A stretch of 64,000 bases of DNA from a virus (Duplodnaviria; Caudoviricetes): positions 96,001-160,000 of IMG/VR virus record IMGVR_UViG_3300001528_000425. One strand, given 5' to 3'. Positions 2,194 to 63,282 of the stretch are shown in pieces (the stretch's first letter is position 1; each line of letters opens with the position of its first letter). The position numbers were made by a program, and so were the translations under genes. The notes under the pieces were generated by a model. The model had not been told where the DNA came from, ran no database searches, and saw nothing but the letters and a program-made list of their open reading frames with translations.

Positions 2194-2607
2194 TGAATGA
2201 CTTAACTCGAACCTAGACTAACGGAAGGTCCAATACTGATCCAGATGGATCAACTCTCATATTCTATCGACCTACGTAATCGAATATAGAGGTAGCTTCG
2301 TACGTGTCTCCGTAAGCAAATAATCTCCCAACCAATTATATAGGTTGGATGAGGATTATTTACCTACTCGGACACGTACGAGTTTGGTGCTACCAAAATT
2401 ACTGCGACAGCTTAATAACTGTCGCGCCACTGCCGGTGCGTTAACACCGTATATTGGTTGTAACTTGGTAACAAGATGATCGAAAGTTGAATTTGTGTAC
2501 ATAACACTCCTCCAGCTCAGTACCCTCTATGGCGTGCTACCGCCATAGAGGGTATGATCTTCTTTTACAATGGTAATTGCTTTCAGGACGAACAGTTAAG
2601 TCATTCA
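2194..2607 (-). ncRNA. ~414-nt structured RNA element, copy 1, with embedded ORF
   Basis: 14-bp terminal inverted repeat (2194-2207/2594-2607), nested hairpins with G-U pairs on the minus strand, promoter at 2619-2635, homologous copy at 54833-55227. Confidence 0.75.
2356..2502 (-). CDS. 48-aa peptide MYTNSTFDHLVTKLQPIYGVNAPAVARQLLSCRSNFGSTKLVRVRVGK inside the structured RNA
   Basis: GGAGGAG SD; 26 of 47 residues identical to the ORF at 54987-55130. Confidence 0.8.
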   Translation of the reverse strand: MYTNSTFDHLVTKLQPIYGVNAPAVARQLLSCRSNFGSTKLVRVRVGK

Positions 2608-6381: not shown

Positions 6382-7346
6382 CGGTTATCTCCTTCCGTAT
6401 AAAGCTCTTGGATCAGATCGTAGAATTGCTTCCGAACGTCTGCTCCCCAGGTAGCGGTTTTGTTCGAGATGCGAACCATCAAGGATTCTTTGGTATCCTT
6501 CAACCCGTGTTCCATCACGACAAGACAAAGTCGTTCCGAGGCAGAAGGATTCTTGACTGGTTGTTTTTCCCAGTACTCGAAGAATACAGGAGATGACTCC
6601 TTGAACCCCTTGGGGATCATAAGTGTATCCGAACCATCATCCGCAGAAGCAACTTCCTCCAGCAACGGAGAACGAGTCAGCTTCTTGAGAACAGGAGCAA
6701 ATAGAGTTGGAGCATTCAGAGTGACCTGACGGAGCTTCGAGCTTCGTTCGATCATATCTTCCTTCCCAGTCAAAAGCTGAAGGATATGATCTACTTTGGC
6801 GATATCAACTGTCTCAGCAACAGAAGGATCTCCAAGTTGTTCGATGTCCGTCAAGATAGCAGCGATATGCTCGATGAACGCAGGAGTATTCTCCAAGATA
6901 TTCACCTGTCGATTGATGTAGTCCCAGCTATCATCCAGTGGCATCTTCGCAGCGATATTCGCCACGATAGAGATCAGAGCATCTACAGGTTCTTCCACAT
7001 ACTCCTGTACGATCTCGATGAGATCCTGTCGATCCTTGATCAATTCAGTGAAGTTATCACGATCGAACTTAGTTCGAAGCGCGATAGCAAGTTGTATCAT
7101 CGTTACGTCGTTGCAGATATCGAATTCATCCTGATTGATGATGATTCCGAGTTCGACCAACTCACCAAGCAACAAAGACATGGCTTGTTGTCTCAGGTAT
7201 CTGGGAGTGACCTCTTCAACCGTAACTTCCAGAAGATACTCCTGTCTCGCCAGATAATCCGCGATATAAGGGCTAATACCCATACATTTCTGGATCACCT
7301 CACGATCATAATCAGCAGTCTCCGGTAACGTGTTAACGATTGCCAT
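6378..7346 (-). CDS. Hypothetical protein
   Basis: 322-aa ORF, translationally coupled to the RNAP subunit gene. Confidence 0.75.
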   Translation of the reverse strand: MAIVNTLPETADYDREVIQKCMGISPYIADYLARQEYLLEVTVEEVTPRYLRQQAMSLLLGELVELGIIINQDEFDICNDVTMIQLAIALRTKFDRDNFTELIKDRQDLIEIVQEYVEEPVDALISIVANIAAKMPLDDSWDYINRQVNILENTPAFIEHIAAILTDIEQLGDPSVAETVDIAKVDHILQLLTGKEDMIERSSKLRQVTLNAPTLFAPVLKKLTRSPLLEEVASADDGSDTLMIPKGFKESSPVFFEYWEKQPVKNPSASERLCLVVMEHGLKDTKESLMVRISNKTATWGADVRKQFYDLIQELYTEGDNR

Positions 7347-8908: not shown

Positions 8909-9226
8909 ATGATTCCTCCAGATCAATTGACAAATCGGGTTCTCCGTGAGCTGATTCCTGGATTTATGGAAACGGCTGTCAAGCTCATCATGTGTGATGC
9001 ATGGAATGAGACAATCGGATTGTCCGAACCTACCGAACAACTCCTGGAAGACTTGACAAACGCTATCTCTTGTTCCTTGGAAGCATTTGCACCGGACCTC
9101 TGGTGGGACGTTATGTGCGAACCGACCGAGGAACAGCGTGTCCAGGTGATCGTCAATCAATTGGAAGACTGTGTAATCGTACGGCAGATTAGTTTGGTCT
9201 TCCGCAACGATCCTGTTAATGCTTAG
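8909..9226 (+). CDS. Hypothetical protein
   Basis: GGAG SD, follows the previous gene in an operon. Confidence 0.7.
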   Translation: MIPPDQLTNRVLRELIPGFMETAVKLIMCDAWNETIGLSEPTEQLLEDLTNAISCSLEAFAPDLWWDVMCEPTEEQRVQVIVNQLEDCVIVRQISLVFRNDPVNA

Positions 9227-9230
9227 GTAC

Positions 9231-9305
9231 AACCTCGTGGTGTAATGGTGTGCACAACTGGTTTTGATCCAGTTAGTCTAAGTTCGAATCTTAGCGAGGT
9301 TGCCA
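9231..9305 (+). tRNA. tRNA-Gln (anticodon TTG)
   Basis: Acceptor stem AACCTCG/CGAGGTT, anticodon arm AACTGG-TTTTGAT-CCAGTT, GTTCGAATC T-loop, encoded CCA. Confidence 0.93.
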
Positions 9306-9330
9306 TATCTTACAAAAAATAAAGTCAAAG

Positions 9331-11154: not shown

Positions 11155-13251
11155 TTAGATTACCATAACTCCATCTTCTGTGTACAAGTCACTCAATAAG
11201 AGTTTCTTGTCATCTGAACCAACCGATATTCCAAGTTGGGTCAGAGTCAGATATAACGCTTTCACGTTGTGGTAGATGATCGAACGAATGTCGATCAGCG
11301 GAATCAGTTCTTTTGGCACTCGATCCAACTGCGGATTGATACAGATGCTGGCAGGATGTCTCTTGTACTTGAGATAGAACTCTCTTGCAGACTTAGCCAG
11401 TCTCTTGTCCATGTCCTCCAGCATCGTGTAATACTGTTCCGTTGGTGGATACAGGAATGCGATCGCTGTCTTGGTCGGTGGCTGGATATCTCCGTACTTC
11501 TGTGCGAAGATCTCTTGCCACGCCATCAAGTAGAAATAATTACTCGACGTTGGAGTCGCGTAGTCTCTCTCCATCTTGATCGACAACATCTTGAAGAACT
11601 CCGTTTCACCATCAAGTACTGACTTCCGGATCTGTTGTTCGAACTTGACCACTGTTCCGATCAGCTCTGCAGCAGAAAGTCTGCCATTGGCTTTCTCCAG
11701 AACGTGTTTGACAAGGAAGTCTTCCACGAACTTGGTTGCTGTTGCACACACGTCAGAACCACGAAGCTGAACTCCTTTGATGTCGGTAGCCAATTTGTTC
11801 AAGATGACACCTTCCTGGATCTTGATCTGTCCAGCGTAGGTTTTCTTGATTGAGTACACGATCATCGTTGGGTAGAGGAATTCATTCTTCATCTCCATGA
11901 TCTTGATAAACTCACCAGTTGCTCCATGTGCGACACTGTATTTAGCCAAACAATGCGAGATCGCTTTGGTCAGCCAGTAGATTGCACAACTTGAGATTTG
12001 GTAAGTCTTCGTCGTCAGTTTGAAGTAGTCTCCGGTGTACCATTCCACCCAATCCTTCGCAGTGAAGATCACTGAGTCGGTATCAGATAAGATCACAGTG
12101 TTTCGGAACATGTGCTTCTTCAGATTGATCCGCGGTGTGTTCAATCTAGTGTAGATGAACATATCGAACAGATCTCTGATCCCATCGAGTTGCTCTTGCA
12201 CATAATGCGCAATGGAAACGAACTTCTTCGCTAAGTCAGGTCGCTTAGACGGGAAGTCGTACACCTGCATGGTATCATCATCGGTTGAGAACAACTCGTT
12301 GAATGATACAGCGATCACGGCGATGAGATCTTTGTCGATCTTGAATAGATCGTCAGGAACAACATCAGATCGCATCTCTATCTTCGTAAGATCGAAGAGA
12401 TCGTTCAACCATGGACGGAAGATATTCTCGTTACCCCAGATCAGATGTCTGAGATTCTGAAAATACCAGAAGAACGCCACTTCTTCCGCTGTCATCGTGT
12501 TGATCAGTTCTTTAACCCGAGGGATCTGATCGGACGGATGATACTGCTGGATCGTCTTACGATAGAACTCATAAAGTTCGACACGTGTTGGCCATCTCAG
12601 ATGATGTCGATTCATCATGTCTCTGAGTTTATCACGGTCGATCCCATCGGTGATATGGATCATGATGTGATTGATCAGTTCTTCCTCGGAGAACCATGCG
12701 AAATTTCCACCCAATACAGTCTCAGCTGTAGTGTATGCCTGAGCGATGAGAGCACGTGCTGATGAGGTGATAGAGTTGTAGTTTCCTTTGTCATAGAACA
12801 CGTTGTACATAGAACCCATGCCACCAGGTAACGAGTTCACGTTGATCTTGATCGTCGTCTGAGCGAAGTAGTGTTGCATCTCCGTAGTAGTGTCACCAAC
12901 TGCTTTTGCTTGTAGCATCGCTTTCTTGTGCTGACTACGACGTTTCAGCTGGTCAGTTACAAGCTGGGTTACGATACCGATCTTTTGATCTGTTGGTAGA
13001 TAAACACTACCGCTAGGAGACATGATCATGTCTCGTTTTCGTTCGTAGTAGATCGCCAGATCTTCTGCTACGATCCTAGTTTCTCCATACCGAACTGTTT
13101 CAACATGGATGATCGTTTTCGGTTGGTATTTCGATTTGGCCACATCTCGTACATATTGATTCGCCTCTTCCCTGCTCAACATAGGGAATTTTCGACTGAT
13201 GTAAGTTGTCATCAGGTCGACGTACGATTTAGGCAATGAAGGTCGTGACAT
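11155..13251 (-). CDS. Family B DNA polymerase, catalytic subunit of the split phiKZ-type enzyme (gp82-like)
   Basis: KINVNSLPG (region III-like), SDTDS (region I), KKTYAG, KGV; no exonuclease domain evident. Confidence 0.85.
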   Translation of the reverse strand: MSRPSLPKSYVDLMTTYISRKFPMLSREEANQYVRDVAKSKYQPKTIIHVETVRYGETRIVAEDLAIYYERKRDMIMSPSGSVYLPTDQKIGIVTQLVTDQLKRRSQHKKAMLQAKAVGDTTTEMQHYFAQTTIKINVNSLPGGMGSMYNVFYDKGNYNSITSSARALIAQAYTTAETVLGGNFAWFSEEELINHIMIHITDGIDRDKLRDMMNRHHLRWPTRVELYEFYRKTIQQYHPSDQIPRVKELINTMTAEEVAFFWYFQNLRHLIWGNENIFRPWLNDLFDLTKIEMRSDVVPDDLFKIDKDLIAVIAVSFNELFSTDDDTMQVYDFPSKRPDLAKKFVSIAHYVQEQLDGIRDLFDMFIYTRLNTPRINLKKHMFRNTVILSDTDSVIFTAKDWVEWYTGDYFKLTTKTYQISSCAIYWLTKAISHCLAKYSVAHGATGEFIKIMEMKNEFLYPTMIVYSIKKTYAGQIKIQEGVILNKLATDIKGVQLRGSDVCATATKFVEDFLVKHVLEKANGRLSAAELIGTVVKFEQQIRKSVLDGETEFFKMLSIKMERDYATPTSSNYFYLMAWQEIFAQKYGDIQPPTKTAIAFLYPPTEQYYTMLEDMDKRLAKSAREFYLKYKRHPASICINPQLDRVPKELIPLIDIRSIIYHNVKALYLTLTQLGISVGSDDKKLLLSDLYTEDGVMVI

Positions 13252-13322: not shown

Positions 13323-13339
13323 TCATATCTGTAATATAT
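13323..13339 (-). promoter_or_regulatory. Early promoter ATATATTAC-N5-TGA
   Basis: Consensus match upstream of the DNA polymerase gene. Confidence 0.7.
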
Positions 13340-13436
13340 ACCGCTATTTCCCTTCATCTTGTTCAGACCATGATATAGCTTGTCTTCACGTCCAAGCGTC
13401 AATTGCATAACACTAACAACACACGGAGATACCAAT

Positions 13437-23310: not shown

Positions 23311-23327
23311 TCACTTATGTAATATAT
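23311..23327 (-). promoter_or_regulatory. Early promoter ATATATTAC-N5-TGA
   Basis: Consensus match. Confidence 0.7.
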
Positions 23328-23336
23328 ATGCAAAGA

Positions 23337-38265: not shown

Positions 38266-39585
38266 TTAGAACAACTGACGTTGTTTTTGAACAACCGGGC
38301 ATTCATCGGTATAATACCAGAAGTACCCGTCGATCTCTTCCCCATCAGGGAAGACTTGCTTGAGCTGATCGATGGTGACAGTGCTGTCAAGGGGTTTCAC
38401 ACAAACGCGATAGACTCCTTGCTTGATCAGTACATACCCGACCGCAACCTTCGCGAACTTTCCATTGATCGCAACAATATCGATTGTATATCGAATTGCG
38501 TCGTAGATACCCGGAAGATAAGGATGATTCATTGCCAAGGCGTGGATACCAGTGGGACCGAACTCAGTGAGATAACTCAACGATCTGAGCGCGATGGTAT
38601 CGTTCTTCGCCGCACATTGCCGAATGATAGCGTTCGTTGATTTGAACGCTTCGAGTTCCTGATAAGGAATCAGCACGTCCTTCAATGCAGGAGGATCTGT
38701 CTTCTTCGGCATAGTGAAAACTTGCGTGTCTGCTGTCCACCCGGCAGCGCCAGCATGCCCACCCCCGTTATACGCTAATGCGATATCGATCACAGGCTTC
38801 TCTTCCGTTGTGGCATATACCGAATACCGATATTTCCCAACATCAGAAGTCCAGGCATACATCATCAATCCGTCGTAGATGGACCGATCTTCAACACTGT
38901 CGAAGAACCAACTCACGGATTGTCTGGTGTTGGCTGCAAGGATCTGCTTCCCATTGACTTCAGTCGAGAAGGCCAGATCATGAGCCCATACCTTATCTCG
39001 TCTTACCTGATATTCTTCGATCGGTCTTCCGAGTTGAAGGATGGAACTGAGACGACGACTGCTCGTCGATAACAGGTCCTCCCATATGGCAGCGCCTTGT
39101 TTGGTGTTCGGTCGAGTGTCGAACAGGTCGATGCCGAAGAAGAACGCACGCGTATCCGTTTCGGTGAATTGCCACCGATCGTAATCGTCCACGAGCTTGA
39201 GAGCTCTCGGTACTTCTTTGCCTGGGAAGAAGAAATCCCAGCAAAGCAAAGCGCCACATCTGGAATCATCCCTGATACCCTTGATCTTGTCGAGGATTCC
39301 CATGGTCTTAAGCTCTTCTTCTATCGATTGATAGTTCTGCTTGTGATGATCAAGCCAAGCGATATTGCAGCCACGATCCAGCAACATCTTGAAGTCAGTT
39401 GCTGGAATGCTGAAGTCTGCAATAACAACATTACACCCAGCTTCGATGCGCTCGTACGGAATAGACCTTCCATAATTGGTCAGGATGATGACGACTTTGG
39501 AGTTATCTCCGAATCGCTTCAGGATTACTCCACCAGCCGCCGCTGCATCCATGTCGTTGTGTAAGATTGCGAAGATTGTTTTCAT
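38266..39585 (-). CDS. DHH/DHHA1 family phosphoesterase
   Basis: HNDMD, ADFS, DHH, GGGHAGAAG; AAGGAG SD before ATG at 39585. Confidence 0.88.
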   Translation of the reverse strand: MKTIFAILHNDMDAAAAGGVILKRFGDNSKVVIILTNYGRSIPYERIEAGCNVVIADFSIPATDFKMLLDRGCNIAWLDHHKQNYQSIEEELKTMGILDKIKGIRDDSRCGALLCWDFFFPGKEVPRALKLVDDYDRWQFTETDTRAFFFGIDLFDTRPNTKQGAAIWEDLLSTSSRRLSSILQLGRPIEEYQVRRDKVWAHDLAFSTEVNGKQILAANTRQSVSWFFDSVEDRSIYDGLMMYAWTSDVGKYRYSVYATTEEKPVIDIALAYNGGGHAGAAGWTADTQVFTMPKKTDPPALKDVLIPYQELEAFKSTNAIIRQCAAKNDTIALRSLSYLTEFGPTGIHALAMNHPYLPGIYDAIRYTIDIVAINGKFAKVAVGYVLIKQGVYRVCVKPLDSTVTIDQLKQVFPDGEEIDGYFWYYTDECPVVQKQRQLF

Positions 39586-48231: not shown

Positions 48232-49927
48232 TTCACTACTTCTAGCCGCACAGGATGAGTCTTGCGTCCTTTGTGTGACGCCATATCTGGGCGGCTCGTG
48301 GTGGAGTCGCTTACGTCCACCGATGCCGCGAAACTTCAGCGAAGGATATCAATGGAATGCTCTACAGACAGCCATGTATTCGTCGCTACCCTGGAAGAAC
48401 GACCATCACTTTACGTTTAACTTCACGGTTGCCGAAGATTTCGAAAACGGCAGCTACTGGATCATGTACCAGAGCAACGGTAGGATTGTGTTCTCTCTAG
48501 ACAAAGACGCTCGCGGCAGTCGGTTCGTATTTGGAAGTTACGCATTCAGCAACGGAGTGTTTGTTTATACTCCGTTCGCAGCTTCGCTAGCCGGGAGACA
48601 TGAAGTGATTTTGGCGGTCGTTGGAGATACGTTGAGAATCACGGTGGATGGTGTGTCGTACGAGCAGAGCGGCGAACGTGTGGAGTCATCGAGCTACAAC
48701 CGGGTGGTGACAACCTCAGCCCCGGTGACGCTTCACGCGGTTTCCCTGACCGACGATTCGACGGAAACGGATATCTGGCAAGCGACCTACTCCGATCTAT
48801 ACGACACGTCGAATCCGTGGCCATCTGCCGTTCCGCGCAACTTCGCGGAGGAACCTGAAACATGGAGAGATGTACCGTTAATCACTTCTGCGGTTGGATA
48901 TGATGACTGCGAATTTTCCATCCATTATCGGCTAGACGGTTATCTGGATGGTTCTACCATCACTCAGTTATTTTATCACATCTCTCACAATGGCAGTGTC
49001 AACATTGCATTTGCAGGAGATGGTACTGGTGGTAACTACAGTTATATCCAGTTGACTGACACGGACAGTCTTGTGATTCCTTTAGACCGGATTCGACAAC
49101 TTGGAGAGCATACGATCCGCGTTCGCCGCATTGGATCAACTGTTACCATCGAGTTCGATGATGAGGTTGCTACAACCTCATCTGGAATGGATAAAGTAGC
49201 AATCTATTCAATGAATGCTCCGACTTCCAATTTCAACGGTGTTATTTTCGAGATGTACTGGAAAAATCTGACCACAGGACGAATAGTCTGGAGCTATCCG
49301 ACTGAAGCAGAGCGTGTACGTCTTATTACGAAGTCGAATGTTCGTACCGATAGGAGTGCTTTCGAACCGGTCGATGACAACTACGTTTACTACGTAGATA
49401 CCAAATTGGATCTGCGAGGTTATATCGGTGATCTGTCTATGGTTGCCAATGTGCACATCGATCAGGAAAGCGCCACTCGTGCTGCAAATCCAGTGGTGCA
49501 ATATCACCTCATCACTCAAGGAGGCCCGACCACATCCAATACCCTGACCGTGTTCGCTATGTATCTGACTCGTTACCCAGATCGCAGCATAGGTTACAAA
49601 CTCTTGATCAGCGATGGATCGAAGTGGTTCGAAATTGAGAAGATTTACTCTGATGTACCTCTCGATCAGATACGAACTGTCGGAGTGGTGCTGATCAAAG
49701 CTACAAGAGAACAACGTTGGTTCGTGAATGGTAGTTATATCGGCTCTGTATTCGTACCGGCAGATTGGAATGCGTTCAATGGTTCAGATAATGCAGTACA
49801 GAATGTGCGCATTGGTCCTCATATCTTGAGCACGAGTTATTGGCCTACAAAGTTACCATCGGTCTTAAGCGCTTGTGTATTTACACGTGCGCTGAGTGAT
49901 GCTGAGATGATAGCGATCCACGGTTAG
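48224..49927 (+). CDS. Receptor-binding protein with LamG/ConA-like modules, cassette A
   Basis: Beta-rich; duplicated PRNF module; C-terminal FTRALSDAEM. Confidence 0.65.
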   Translation: MRDSLLLAAQDESCVLCVTPYLGGSWWSRLRPPMPRNFSEGYQWNALQTAMYSSLPWKNDHHFTFNFTVAEDFENGSYWIMYQSNGRIVFSLDKDARGSRFVFGSYAFSNGVFVYTPFAASLAGRHEVILAVVGDTLRITVDGVSYEQSGERVESSSYNRVVTTSAPVTLHAVSLTDDSTETDIWQATYSDLYDTSNPWPSAVPRNFAEEPETWRDVPLITSAVGYDDCEFSIHYRLDGYLDGSTITQLFYHISHNGSVNIAFAGDGTGGNYSYIQLTDTDSLVIPLDRIRQLGEHTIRVRRIGSTVTIEFDDEVATTSSGMDKVAIYSMNAPTSNFNGVIFEMYWKNLTTGRIVWSYPTEAERVRLITKSNVRTDRSAFEPVDDNYVYYVDTKLDLRGYIGDLSMVANVHIDQESATRAANPVVQYHLITQGGPTTSNTLTVFAMYLTRYPDRSIGYKLLISDGSKWFEIEKIYSDVPLDQIRTVGVVLIKATREQRWFVNGSYIGSVFVPADWNAFNGSDNAVQNVRIGPHILSTSYWPTKLPSVLSACVFTRALSDAEMIAIHG

Positions 49928-54832: not shown

Positions 54833-55227
54833 TCATGATCCGATCCCATTACGATGCAGAACAGGTAATCTAATAAAATCAACTACAATATCACACCCTG
54901 TTCTATCGTTGTGCGATATCGTTCGACTTGAACAGTCTGTAAAGATCTACACCCTCATACCTTTCTATAGGTAGAGAGCGTGATCTTTAAACTGTTACAC
55001 GTCTAATCGTTGTAGTGCCGAAGTTCCTACGTGCAAGAACAAGTTGTCTTGCGATCGCAGGAGCCTGAGCACCATAACGAGGCCGAAGCAAGTCGACCAA
55101 CTCTTGGAACGAAAGATTTGTATAGTCCATGGACCACCTCTTCTACTTAGGGATAGGGAAGGAGTGTCAGCTCCTTCCCTATCCCGCATTCCTGGTAATT
55201 GCTTTCAAACGACCGATCGGATCATGA
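54833..55227 (-). ncRNA. ~395-nt structured RNA element, copy 2, with embedded ORF
   Basis: 13-bp terminal inverted repeat (54833-54845/55215-55227), TGAAAGCAATTACCA, same layout as 2194-2607. Confidence 0.75.
54987..55130 (-). CDS. 47-aa peptide MDYTNLSFQELVDLLRPRYGAQAPAIARQLVLARRNFGTTTIRRVTV
   Basis: GAGGT SD; paralogue of 2356-2502. Confidence 0.8.
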   Translation of the reverse strand: MDYTNLSFQELVDLLRPRYGAQAPAIARQLVLARRNFGTTTIRRVTV

Positions 55228-56349: not shown

Positions 56350-57603
56350 ATGATCCAGATCGTCGAACCATCGGTGCAACTGTATAAGGAGCACAACCCT
56401 CTCAAGAAGATCGAGTTCATGGCTCGTATCTGTACTGGCACGGAGAGTTCCGTGAAACAGGAACCGAATCTCAAGTTGATCCAAGCTCTGATCAACAGAG
56501 GACATGAATCGGTACTCGAGCATTACTACATCAAAGTGAAGTTCCCGTTTCGGTCCGTCACTATTCCTGCGGAATATCTCAACCCTGCGATGCTGAAGGC
56601 GTTCGCACTTGCGGATAAGTCGGAGCGCACGGAAGAAGAGCAAGTGGAACTCGATCGATACAAAGAAGAGTTCCAGCGTCTGACCATCGACAACAAGAAG
56701 AGTGATGTCAAGGAGTATACGGAACAGGAAACTGCTCTGAACGATCAGCTCTTCTTCCAGCTCTACACGATCTTCAATCCCAAGTTCACCAAACCGTCGG
56801 TGTCCTCTGCGGATGAGCTGCATACCGTCAACCAGCATCTCTCCATCCAGCATCTGGAGCTGATCGGCAACATCCGCGCCATGCGTGATGGCATCCGTAT
56901 CCTTTCCGAAGGCAATACGTTCGGTATGCTGAGAAGTGGAGATCCCGGGTTCTTCTCCTACTGCATCAGTCTGATCAAATCCCTCTACACCTGGCAACCA
57001 ATCCTCTTCGAAGATCTCGTGCAGGATTTCAAAACATACTGGGAAGCAGAAGATGCAGTTACCCTGCAGTCGTTCGGTATCGAAGAATGGGAGAATTACG
57101 CATCCTTCATCATCGAAACCGATCGCAATGTCTCGCATCAGTTCGTTCGTCATCGGAACGAGATCTCCTACAGCCAGCAGTCGCAGCGTTACTGCAAGTA
57201 CAAAGATGGAGTTCGCTATACTCGTCCAGTTGGATTCTCCTGGGCAGTGGATGGCAATCCCATCTACGAAGAGTGGAAGACCGACATGGAAGCGAATTCA
57301 GCGAAATATCTGAAGAAGCTCGATGACAGTCTTCCTCCGGAAGAAGCCAGACTCTGGCTGAACAGTTCCTGTTACACCAAACTCGGTGTGACGATGACTC
57401 CGGATGCACTTCAGCATTTCATGAAACTTCGCGATGCTGATGATGCATATGCTCCGATTCGGCATATCGCCAAAGAGATCCGCAAAGCTCTCACACCTGC
57501 TCCGATCGAGAACGATCATCCGTTCATCAATTTGAACGGTGAAGAGATCATGAAAGATTTCGGTGAAGAGATCGCCAAGATCGTCTCCGGAGAAAGTAAC
57601 TAA
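56350..57603 (+). CDS. thyX: FAD-dependent thymidylate synthase
   Basis: GHESVLEH, HQFVRHR...SQQSQRY, PEEAR. Confidence 0.92.
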   Translation: MIQIVEPSVQLYKEHNPLKKIEFMARICTGTESSVKQEPNLKLIQALINRGHESVLEHYYIKVKFPFRSVTIPAEYLNPAMLKAFALADKSERTEEEQVELDRYKEEFQRLTIDNKKSDVKEYTEQETALNDQLFFQLYTIFNPKFTKPSVSSADELHTVNQHLSIQHLELIGNIRAMRDGIRILSEGNTFGMLRSGDPGFFSYCISLIKSLYTWQPILFEDLVQDFKTYWEAEDAVTLQSFGIEEWENYASFIIETDRNVSHQFVRHRNEISYSQQSQRYCKYKDGVRYTRPVGFSWAVDGNPIYEEWKTDMEANSAKYLKKLDDSLPPEEARLWLNSSCYTKLGVTMTPDALQHFMKLRDADDAYAPIRHIAKEIRKALTPAPIENDHPFINLNGEEIMKDFGEEIAKIVSGESN

Positions 57604-61992: not shown

Positions 61993-62222
61993 TGAAGTAT
62001 ATCATCTTCCTGTTGCTTTGTTTCACTATACTCGTATTGATGACAGGATGTCAAACGTACGAATACACCGAATACTACGACCCTCAAGTCAACGGTCAGA
62101 CGTTTGTCACTAAAGCCGGAGAGCTTGAGATATTCGGACCAGTGAAATCAAAGACAACTCAGAGTGGATACCGAGAATCCGATCTTGGCAACAATGCCAC
62201 GATCAAGGTTTCTGCTTTCTAA
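61989..62222 (+). CDS. Small lipoprotein
   Basis: Lipobox LMTGC; ATGA coupling; C-terminal Phe. Confidence 0.7.
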   Translation: MMKYIIFLLLCFTILVLMTGCQTYEYTEYYDPQVNGQTFVTKAGELEIFGPVKSKTTQSGYRESDLGNNATIKVSAF

Positions 62223-62240
62223 CAAAAAAAACAAAGGACC

Positions 62241-62277
62241 TAAGTAACAGGGACGCGTTTGGCGTCCCTGTTACTTA
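62241..62277. terminator. Bidirectional terminator
   Basis: 16-bp inverted repeat. Confidence 0.75.
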
Positions 62278-62433
62278 GTCTTCATCATCTTCGTCATCAC
62301 AATCCTCAAAAGGACCCTGTGATAACAGCTTCTTCAACCAATCGTACAACTCGAACATTGCGTAAATTCCGCCAAACAAGACAAGTACGATCATTATGGC
62401 CAATGTGAAAGATGCTCCATCAGGTTCATTCAT
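62275..62433 (-). CDS. 52-aa membrane peptide with acidic tail
   Basis: MNEPDGASFTLAIMIVLVLFGGIYAMF...DDEDDED. Confidence 0.55.
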   Translation of the reverse strand: MNEPDGASFTLAIMIVLVLFGGIYAMFELYDWLKKLLSQGPFEDCDDEDDED

Positions 62434-62474
62434 GATTGTTCTGTTAAATTCAAGTTATAATTCCATTTGAAAGA

Positions 62475-62506
62475 TCTAGGGTAGGAGGAAATCCTCCTAC
62501 CCTAGA
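62475..62506 (-). terminator. Hairpin terminator
   Basis: 14-bp inverted repeat. Confidence 0.7.
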
Positions 62507-62523
62507 TGGGTAAGTCATAGGAC

Positions 62524-63282
62524 TTACTTCACGATCGGGTTCCCGTTGTTCCAGTCGAGACCAGCGAACGGGTTATTCCCTTCCATCGGAGGACGAAAAT
62601 GATGTTCCTTACGTTCACGCGGAGTGCTGGACTTCTTCGGCGGTACAGTTGATTTGGATTTATCGAACTGTGCCCGCTTAGAAGGTTCGCGTTTACCGGA
62701 ACCCTCGGTGGGATGATCGTCGTCATGATGCGACTCATGACGAACATCTCGATGGTACCGGGCCAGACGTTCCTCCCTTGCTTCGGGAGATTCTTCGTGA
62801 TACTTGAATTCCAGGCAATTCGGGTTCTTGGTGAGCAATTCCAGGATCGCTTCACACATGTACCTGGTTTGTTTCTGATCCCGACAGAGTTGTCCCATCA
62901 GAGAGAGCACATAAGTCATCCCGTTCCGCCGTTCGAAGATATCGGTGAACGAAGGATCTTCGGTAGCATTGGTGTACCGGTCGCAGATGACTTTGAGCGC
63001 TTCCGTCAGTTCAGTGACAGTTTCCTGATTGAAGTCCCTGGCCCTGGCAGCGAATACAGGAAGTTTGGTCATCCAAAAGACCATCGCATCGCCTTCGTGA
63101 CGTTTGCTGTATCCTCGATGAGACATCGAGTAATTCACGATGGTGGCGATAGCCGCTGGATCGTAACCGGCGTCAGTGAGCCTGGCGGTACGTTCTGCAA
63201 CTTTTGCGGCGATGAACTCTTTGCGCTGTTTGACTTCTTCCGGGGTGAGTTGTTTCTTAGACTGAGATTTTGTCACTTCCAT
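62524..63282 (-). CDS. Hypothetical protein with disordered C-terminus
   Basis: AAAGGA SD before ATG at 63282. Confidence 0.7.
   Translation of the reverse strand: MEVTKSQSKKQLTPEEVKQRKEFIAAKVAERTARLTDAGYDPAAIATIVNYSMSHRGYSKRHEGDAMVFWMTKLPVFAARARDFNQETVTELTEALKVICDRYTNATEDPSFTDIFERRNGMTYVLSLMGQLCRDQKQTRYMCEAILELLTKNPNCLEFKYHEESPEAREERLARYHRDVRHESHHDDDHPTEGSGKREPSKRAQFDKSKSTVPPKKSSTPRERKEHHFRPPMEGNNPFAGLDWNNGNPIVK

Follow-up and report, generated by a model that had tools for sequence, protein, structure and literature searches.

In phage lambda, the gene for the small basic protein N lies directly 3' of the RNA site to which N itself binds. To our knowledge, the early genes of nucleus-forming jumbo phages are mostly uncharacterised and the RNA biology of these phages has barely been explored. 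The hok mRNA is ~400 nt long, and a long-range stem between its 5' and 3' ends encloses an ORF of ~50 codons (PMC9841398). The PeSL cassettes of T4-type phages and morons are small accessory genes that accompany repeats of early promoters and stem-loops and whose presence varies from one related phage to another (PMC2839356, PMC4122927). RNA-polymerase-encoding jumbo phages carry an early-promoter motif of ~10 nt that is AT-rich and centred near -10 (PMC7598289), and early transcription in such phages takes place within a vesicle (bioRxiv 10.1101/2023.09.20.558163). The locus analysed here can be set beside these systems on two counts. In every copy of the element a covarying stem of 10-16 bp folds back to enclose the ORF, which is one of the defining traits of the hok/sok arrangement, and the two traits of PeSL cassettes and morons, an early promoter of their own and variation in presence or absence, are also found, with a candidate promoter at 4 of 8 copies and the second copy of the window lacking one of its own. 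We found no described equivalent of the cassette as a whole in the literature.

Copies of the element and their genomic setting

The DNA analysed (the window, 64,000 nucleotides at its full length) is the segment 96001-160000 of a virus record that is complete at 235,559 bp and has direct terminal repeats. The product of one ORF of the window (457 aa) shows ~30% identity to split RNA-polymerase beta' subunits from phiKZ-like jumbo phages that infect Pseudomonas, Erwinia, Ralstonia and Vibrio; a phiKZ-type capsid protein (PhiKZ_MCP) was found in a close relative; and a tubulin-family (PhuZ-like) ORF of 374 aa, whose score is above the Pfam cut-off, lies just past the window end (L079, G000:160367-160936) and, as a predicted product, supports a nucleus-forming life style. 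On the basis of these three features the source phage is a distant, uncultured member of the RNA-polymerase-encoding, phiKZ-like jumbo phages and probably of the nucleus-forming (Chimalliviridae) type. Elsewhere in the window, a 417-aa ORF on the plus strand (56350-57603) has an RHR...S...SQR-type motif that, judged from the translation only, suggests a flavin-dependent thymidylate synthase (ThyX).

A sequence-only reading of the window had proposed a duplicated, structured RNA of about 400 nt with an embedded micro-protein. Every part that it had listed for the two copies was found in its place on the minus strand (Table 1), and copy 2 repeats the order of parts in copy 1 with different stems that still pair, an identical 15-mer and a peptide ~55% identical. 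The duplication is real and larger than had been noted, since the source genome holds four copies, two of them inside the window and two further ones at genome coordinates 38931-39274 and 48617-49037 (found with the peptide and the 14-nt core of the 15-mer, hereafter the 14-mer), and four more are present in a relative (G001; IMG/VR, 238 kb) that is syntenic with the source genome at 65-73% DNA identity. The family thus comprises eight genomic loci in two phages, and near-identical variants of the relative's four copies occur on five assembled contigs. A genome search with a covariance model of the 5' domain retrieved exactly four copies in each of the two genomes and none elsewhere.

Table 1. 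Positions in the window of the two element copies, their parts, a neighbouring ORF and the sites of the promoter-like motif.
Feature	Positions	Strand	Basis or remark
Copy 1, early-promoter-like motif GTATA[TC]ATTAC	2626-2636	minus	strand-specific motif upstream of copy 1; genome coordinate 98636
Copy 1, P1 5' strand (terminal stem, 14 bp, perfect)	2594-2607	minus	pairs with 2194-2207
Copy 1, RGUCGY-type motif (GUUCGU), directly 3' of P1	2588-2593	minus	alignments
Copy 1, conserved 15-mer	2571-2585	minus	14-nt core identical in 3/4 genome copies
Copy 1, P3 (perfect 14-bp hairpin, 6-nt loop)	2521-2554	minus	folding
Copy 1, Shine-Dalgarno site GGAGGAG, 4 nt ahead of AUG	2507-2513	minus	sequence
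Copy 1, 48-aa basic micro-protein ORF, including stop codon	2356-2502	minus	coding signature
Copy 1, P6 (long G-U-containing hairpin)	2298-2381	minus	folding; includes last codons and stop codon (2356-2358)
Copy 1, variable 3' domain (two to three hairpins)	2208-2297	minus	folding
Copy 1, P1 3' closing strand	2194-2207	minus	folding
Hydrophobic ORF of 29 aa immediately 3' of copy 1, with a Shine-Dalgarno site of its own	2073-2162	minus	sequence reading
Copy 2, P1 5' strand (13 bp)	55215-55227	minus	starts 8 nt past stop codon of upstream 84-aa gene
Copy 2, 15-mer, identical to copy 1	55193-55207	minus	exact match
Copy 2, P3 (perfect 15-bp hairpin, 6-nt loop)	55150-55185	minus	folding
Copy 2, 47-aa micro-protein ORF, including stop codon	54987-55130	minus	sequence
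Copy 2, P6 (stop-codon hairpin with CC-UAUA loop)	54925-55003	minus	folding
Copy 2, P1 3' closing strand	54833-54845	minus	folding
Motif GTATA[TC]ATTAC, second site	13330-13340	minus	genome coordinate 109340
Motif GTATA[TC]ATTAC, third site	23318-23328	minus	genome coordinate 119328

The element belongs to no described RNA or protein family and is narrowly distributed. Rfam (4,227 models) gave no match to the element in the window at gathering thresholds, in line with the earlier statement that it resembles no recognised RNA family, and a permissive Rfam search of seven element loci returned only sub-threshold chance matches outside or unrelated to the elements. One tRNA was the only Rfam match in the window at gathering thresholds, and the sole ARAGORN call there was a tRNA-Gln at 9231-9305, with no tmRNA-like call. 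A DNA search of the phage GenBank collection with both copies gave no match, and a scan of JGI metagenomes for the element found none. The peptide yielded nothing usable against Pfam, PHROGs, PDB sequence profiles and the ESM atlas; a word-indexed search of 5.8 billion proteins (protein clusters) and an exhaustive HMM profile search of 1.84 billion representatives each returned members of this phage clade only, and a peptide-pattern scan of IMG/VR found one relative. Two nucleotide patterns gave candidates that were rejected: a DNA pattern for the 5' motif had a single match in IMG/VR, L034, which was judged to be a chance match, and a pattern for the 3' hairpin had 27 loci, none of them upheld by the covariance model or by reading. 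Within the source genome, the 14-mer has three exact matches, all on the minus strand, and its complement does not occur elsewhere in the genome at up to two mismatches.

An 11-nt motif, GTATA[TC]ATTAC, followed by TGAA-like bases, occurs at 16 minus-strand sites in the source genome and at 13 in the relative; it lies strictly on the minus strand, ahead of genes, and often has TTCATG before it. The motif agrees with the early-promoter rule described for RNA-polymerase-encoding jumbo phages (PMC7598289), and we regard these sites as a candidate virion-RNAP early promoter set of the source phage. The motif stands directly upstream of copy 1 and of two of the relative's copies, with a variant before a third, and predicted starts fall 3-15 nt ahead of P1 (for copy 1, ~12-14 nt ahead of the terminal stem, as estimated from the promoter motif). 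The sequence-only reading had called the element early, and this strand-specific motif speaks for that label and suggests that the copies are transcribed early. Copy 2 and the genome's two other copies begin ~7-12 nt past the stop codon of an upstream gene without the promoter motif, no promoter motif of its own having been found upstream of copy 2, and a sigma-70 scan detected no plus-strand sigma-70-like promoter in the element.

The surroundings of the two window copies differ on the 3' side as well. Downstream of copy 2, with no further gene in between, lies a strong terminator hairpin that is separate from the element. Copy 1 is followed by the 29-aa ORF, which is probably carried on the same early transcript and has a hairpin and then a T-rich tract on its 3' side. 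At the orthologous place after the element, the relative has a 244-aa lysozyme-domain gene with a hydrophobic N-terminus similar to the 29-aa ORF, and for this reason the ORF may be a remnant or else a separate small membrane peptide.

A covarying RNA fold around a micro-protein ORF

Every intact copy has its parts in one order, namely P1, RGUCGY, the 14-mer, P3, the Shine-Dalgarno site, the ORF, P6 and the closing strand. P1 is a terminal stem of 10-16 bp that is present in every copy and has a different sequence in each paralog; its inner end tends to GATC, its inner 4-7 bp are similar between copies and its outer bases differ. RGUCGY follows P1 and is itself followed by the 14-mer or a variant of it, GTCG being nearly invariant in alignments of 10 elements. 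The stretch holding the 14-mer, which is only partly conserved in two of the relative's copies, is predicted to be mostly unpaired (mean 0.57, against 0.31 over the element as a whole). Immediately 5' of the P3 hairpin, the leader pairs with codons ~5-12 to form P2, in sequences that differ among copies, and P3 is a perfect hairpin of 14-16 bp with a freely varying loop of 5-7 nt. P3 is followed by a UGA or UAA triplet and then by the Shine-Dalgarno site, which together with the start region is covered by a small hairpin. The 5' arm of P6 holds the last codons and the stop codon within a conserved A/U-rich helix, and its apical loop starts with UAUA after a C-G closing pair, the stem beneath being variable (the CC-UAUA loop of copy 1 lies at about 2339-2343 and is predicted unpaired at 0.95). 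Between P6 and the P1 closing strand are one to three variable hairpins; in the 3' domain of copy 1, an orthologous hairpin is found in the relative, with covarying outer pairs. A further feature listed by the sequence-only reading, CGAUAGAA, is present in both window copies and absent from the other paralogs, and because it is confined to those two copies it is not a feature of the family.

The fold is supported as being under selection at the RNA level. RNAalifold run on a plain MAFFT alignment of ten elements recovered P1 and P3, with compensatory double changes at 25 of 31 pairs. For P3, 93.6% of cells were paired, double changes were found in 11 of 14 pairs, and the covariation score was 0.85, compared with 0.23 in shuffles (0/500 as high) and with only 0.09-0.25 when the partners were slid. 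The start-region, ORF and 3'-hairpin helices have per-copy support, their registers shifting between copies so that RNAalifold gives no consensus for them. Relative to dinucleotide shuffles, the RNA folding z-scores were -11.0 for copy 1 and -10.8 for copy 2, well outside what chance would give. When the whole minus strand was scanned in 1,568 windows of 400 nt, with MFE corrected for GC content, copies of the element ranked 1, 2 and 5 for predicted structure. The sense strand folded better than the antisense strand in all of the elements compared (9/9). Of the pairs in P6 and the remaining helices ~10% are G-U, and in P1 the share is 7 of 107; there, changes between close relatives go via G-U pairs. 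It is these pairs, together with the consistent folding advantage of the sense strand, that point to selection on RNA.

P3 behaves differently. It is almost purely Watson-Crick (2 G-U in 121 pairs), and its loop is exactly inverted between two near-identical relatives; a palindrome nearly without G-U pairs and with an inverted loop therefore points to DNA-level processes acting on at least this hairpin. The inversion, with the stem of this perfect hairpin (hairpin 1 of the element) unchanged, is seen on comparing L016:1339-1749 with L036:3893-4303. A second loop inversion occurs between the near-identical relatives L009 and L010 at about 7000-7060, in a terminator upstream of another copy. Such loop inversions are a flip-flop signature of DNA palindromes.

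Occlusion of the start region is not unusual, its percentiles being 13-43 among 70 conserved genes of the phage, and strong occlusion of the ribosome-binding site was rejected on this comparison. Because the start region is ordinary in accessibility, a simple translational-gate reading is unsupported.

One other place in the window has a similar style, a small gene between long perfect hairpins, and stands outside the element family. Among the 400-nt windows of the genome it ranks fourth for structure (62210-62609, minus strand, z = -8.8), and it has a 52-aa ORF (62275-62433) between two perfect hairpins of 15-17 bp, the upstream hairpin being followed by sequence that resembles a degenerate early promoter.

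By its pattern of substitutions, the ORF of 47-48 codons, which has a strong Shine-Dalgarno site in every copy, is protein-coding. Mean pairwise differences at codon positions 1, 2 and 3 were 0.39, 0.28 and 0.67, respectively, and pN/pS between close relatives was 0.17 and 0.21 for intact copies and 0.47 for a decayed copy. Taken with the compensated pairs and the P3 covariation, these values uphold the earlier claim that selection acts on both fold and peptide. The peptide is basic and hydrophilic, has no hydrophobic stretch or membrane segment, and keeps invariant Phe, Leu, Val, Tyr and Ala positions as well as a mostly conserved NFG motif. AlphaFold2 (9-sequence alignment) predicted a single long helix over residues 4-36 at a pLDDT of 80, a model that we judged uninformative. 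No conserved upstream ORF was found, although UGA or UAA always follows hairpin 1.

The copies come and go between the two genomes. Two sites are shared by the syntenic genomes and four are unshared, so that 4 of the 8 copies lie at unshared sites. The 39-kb site is represented in the relative by a 113-nt spacer in place of 444 nt, with homology resuming right after the P1 3' strand, and at this site, the sole comparable one, no direct target duplication was seen between the filled and the empty state. The relative's 141-kb copy and one extra gene are bracketed by two promoter repeats. The relative's ortholog of copy 2 has lost 126 nt internally, the ORF end and P6 being gone (L015:1460-1732 vs L035:317-715), and its frame runs on for >100 codons; an intact version exists on another contig, and this decay of one copy has occurred without loss of the phage lineage. 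Near-identical relatives all keep their copies at the same sites.

Sequence divergence among the copies is uneven. In 4 of 6 pairs the relative's paralogs have 28-32 of 47 residues in common, against 23-27 of 47 for positional orthologs, and the higher identity of the paralogs points to concerted evolution. Between the relative and contigs otherwise 97-99% identical to it, the ORF windows differ at 13-14 positions per 144 nt, have a synonymous divergence of 0.20-0.25 and fall in the top 1%, 4% and 9% of divergence, the element's non-coding parts being nearly unchanged. Gene conversion between paralogs or an exchange of old alleles is the likely cause. Divergence of L009, L035 and L036 from G001 is strongly patchy in genomes otherwise 97-99% identical, and several short windows with ~10% differences occur besides those of the micro-protein ORFs, for example in L009 at about 9150-9330 and 12220-12400.

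Explanations for the cassette

We infer the time of transcription, a role for the fold and a role for the peptide as follows. The reading that we place first, tentatively and at somewhat less than an even chance, is that the element is an early micro-protein gene cassette whose mRNA fold is a selected, cis-acting part. The cassettes would form a clade-restricted, multi-copy family of small early-gene units in a phiKZ-like jumbo phage of the nucleus-forming type, each transcribed on the minus strand either from its own virion-RNAP-type early promoter or within an early operon. Translation would give a basic protein of 47-48 aa that evolves fast between strains and is most plausibly an early protein of the host-takeover or anti-defence type, which is a guess, the peptide having neither detected relatives nor a confident fold. 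The surrounding RNA would fold as one closed, compact domain consisting of the P1 terminal clamp, P2, P3, the start-region hairpin and P6, and this fold may insulate the message from varying flanks and set its lifetime and translation. Early RNA would be made in a compartment away from ribosomes and would be fully folded before it is translated; since early transcription is uncoupled from translation in this phage group (bioRxiv 10.1101/2023.09.20.558163), a message folded in advance is plausible and its fold could well be of consequence. The exposed 14-mer and UAUA loop would bind a trans factor, possibly the cassette's own peptide, and are probable binding sites of such a factor. Some observations count against this cis-acting reading. 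The start region is no more occluded than usual, the P3 palindrome and its loop inversion point to DNA-level processes, and message stability alone leaves the conserved single-stranded 14-mer and the UAUA loop unexplained, for which reason we keep a role as an RNP or RNA effector under consideration.

That role, which we consider unlikely and yet well worth weighing, is one of a dual-function RNA or self-contained RNP in which the folded RNA is the effector (a decoy, sponge, scaffold, or lambda N/nut-like RNAP modifier) and the peptide binds the 14-mer or UAUA loop of its own RNA. It would account for conserved primary-sequence motifs at positions predicted to be unpaired, for a UAUA loop that caps a variable stem as in protein-binding hairpins of the boxB type, for non-coding parts that hardly change between close relatives whose ORFs diverge, and for a basic peptide; the leading place of the elements in the genome for RNA structure and the position of 4 of 8 copies directly behind early promoters also agree with it. 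The partial conservation of the 14-mer in two of the relative's copies and the persistence of a phage lineage in which one copy has decayed are harder to accommodate, and because copy 2 is the last gene before a terminator, it has nothing downstream to antiterminate. A specific form, an early RNP with the peptide on its own clamped RNA, in which the particle and not the peptide alone is a decoy or scaffold against host RNA-directed defence or an N/nut-like RNAP modifier, seems to us unlikely too, and slightly more so. Among possible functions, the sequence-only reading had named a decoy or scaffold, a circular or processed RNA and a fold-back-regulated effector; searches found RtcB, RNase III, an Rnl2-type ligase and a reverse transcriptase all absent from the phage genome, and these absences, together with the ordinary occlusion of the start region, argue against parts of that list.

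A mobile or recombination-shuffled DNA cassette is distinctly unlikely as the main explanation. The inverted repeats and palindromes would then stem from DNA or ssDNA events, such as hairpin insertion or promoter-mediated shuffling as in the T4 PeSLs, and the peptide would be cargo or a small helper. Clean presence or absence at syntenic sites, the resumption of homology right after the 3' stem at 39 kb, the two promoter repeats around the relative's 141-kb copy, the perfect P3 palindrome with a loop inverted between relatives and the concerted evolution of paralogs within a genome are all as it would predict. P1 bears on it in two ways: the inner 4-7 bp around GATC are alike between copies and the outer bases unlike, yet with outer stems that vary in sequence a transposase would find no shared end to recognise, and the element, whose only ORF has 47 codons, encodes none. 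No direct target duplication was seen at the one comparable site, copies stay at the same sites in all near-identical relatives, and the G-U pairs and sense-strand folding advantage reflect selection at the RNA level. DNA-level mobility or shuffling explains the patchy distribution and the behaviour of P3, not the RNA-specific pairing.

We consider it improbable that the element is a hok-like (type I toxin-antitoxin-like) module, in which a fold-back mRNA silences a harmful small protein until processing opens the mRNA. The length of the mRNA and its long-range stem around an ORF of ~50 codons are as in hok, several copies occur per genome with one of them decayed, and the P1 5' strand of one copy can alternatively form a local hairpin with adjacent sequence, reminiscent of the metastable hairpin of hok. 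The toxin reading nevertheless fails on the nature of the peptide, which is hydrophilic and basic and has no membrane segment; moreover, no antisense promoter was found in the sigma-70 scan, neither an overlapping mok-like frame nor a conserved upstream ORF is present, and the start region is not unusually closed.

A retron-like or other reverse-transcribed template, in which the terminal stem would be the a1/a2 repeat and the G in the conserved motif directly after it the branching residue, is largely refuted and keeps hardly any probability, given that the complete 235-kb genome has no reverse transcriptase domain (PF00078; control genomes were detected), that a translated, conserved ORF lies inside the element and that differences between close relatives are not adenine-specific. 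A tmRNA or tRNA-like RNA was likewise rejected, ARAGORN having found no tRNA-like domain from the paired ends.

Significance and comparison with known systems

The locus is a clear case of one short stretch selected at once for its protein product and for an intricate RNA fold; it is repeated four times with fully different stems, and its copies evolve in concert. If the fold controls the life or translation of the message, it would show how such phages can program gene expression when transcription and translation are uncoupled; were the RNA itself or a complex of RNA and peptide the effector, the element would represent a new class of phage-encoded RNP with four diverging copies per genome. 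Its many natural compensatory stem variants offer a ready-made test system for RNA structure and function.

Among mobile DNAs, IS and MITE elements differ from the cassette in that its outer stems are different in every copy, no direct repeat accompanies the 39-kb site and no transposase is present. Retron msr-msd RNA shares with it terminal inverted repeats and a conserved G adjoining the stem, whereas a reverse transcriptase is missing from the source genome and a conserved, translated ORF lies within the element. Dual-function sRNAs (SgrS/SgrT, RNAIII/delta-haemolysin and SR1/SR1P) are likewise structured RNAs with a short translated ORF, but the element is much larger and more fully paired, and its 14-mer has no complementary match in the genome at up to two mismatches. 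Like PeSL cassettes and morons, the cassettes vary in presence, and one gain or loss is bracketed by promoter repeats; unlike them, the stem is a long-range clamp round the whole gene that covaries at the RNA level, and there are conserved internal RNA motifs and a conserved protein.

The lambda pL-nutL-N leader is similar in that behind an early promoter stand a conserved linear RNA motif, hairpins and then the gene for a small basic protein, and in that one hairpin combines a variable stem with a conserved loop. The cassette, however, has no sequence similarity to it, occurs as four self-contained copies per genome, belongs to a phage with a multisubunit polymerase and in one copy has no downstream genes, so the likeness is one of layout alone. 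With hok/sok the element has in common an mRNA of ~400 nt, paired 5' and 3' ends round an ORF of ~50 codons, a compact fold and multi-copy loci that include decayed copies. It departs from hok/sok in its product, which is basic and hydrophilic and not a membrane toxin, in the jumbo-phage early promoter in front of it, and in having no sign of an antisense RNA in the sigma-70 scan, no mok-like frame and no unusual occlusion of the ribosome-binding site. What the element shares with its closest analogues, the hok mRNA, the lambda N leader, PeSL cassettes and dual-function sRNAs, is layout and not membership.
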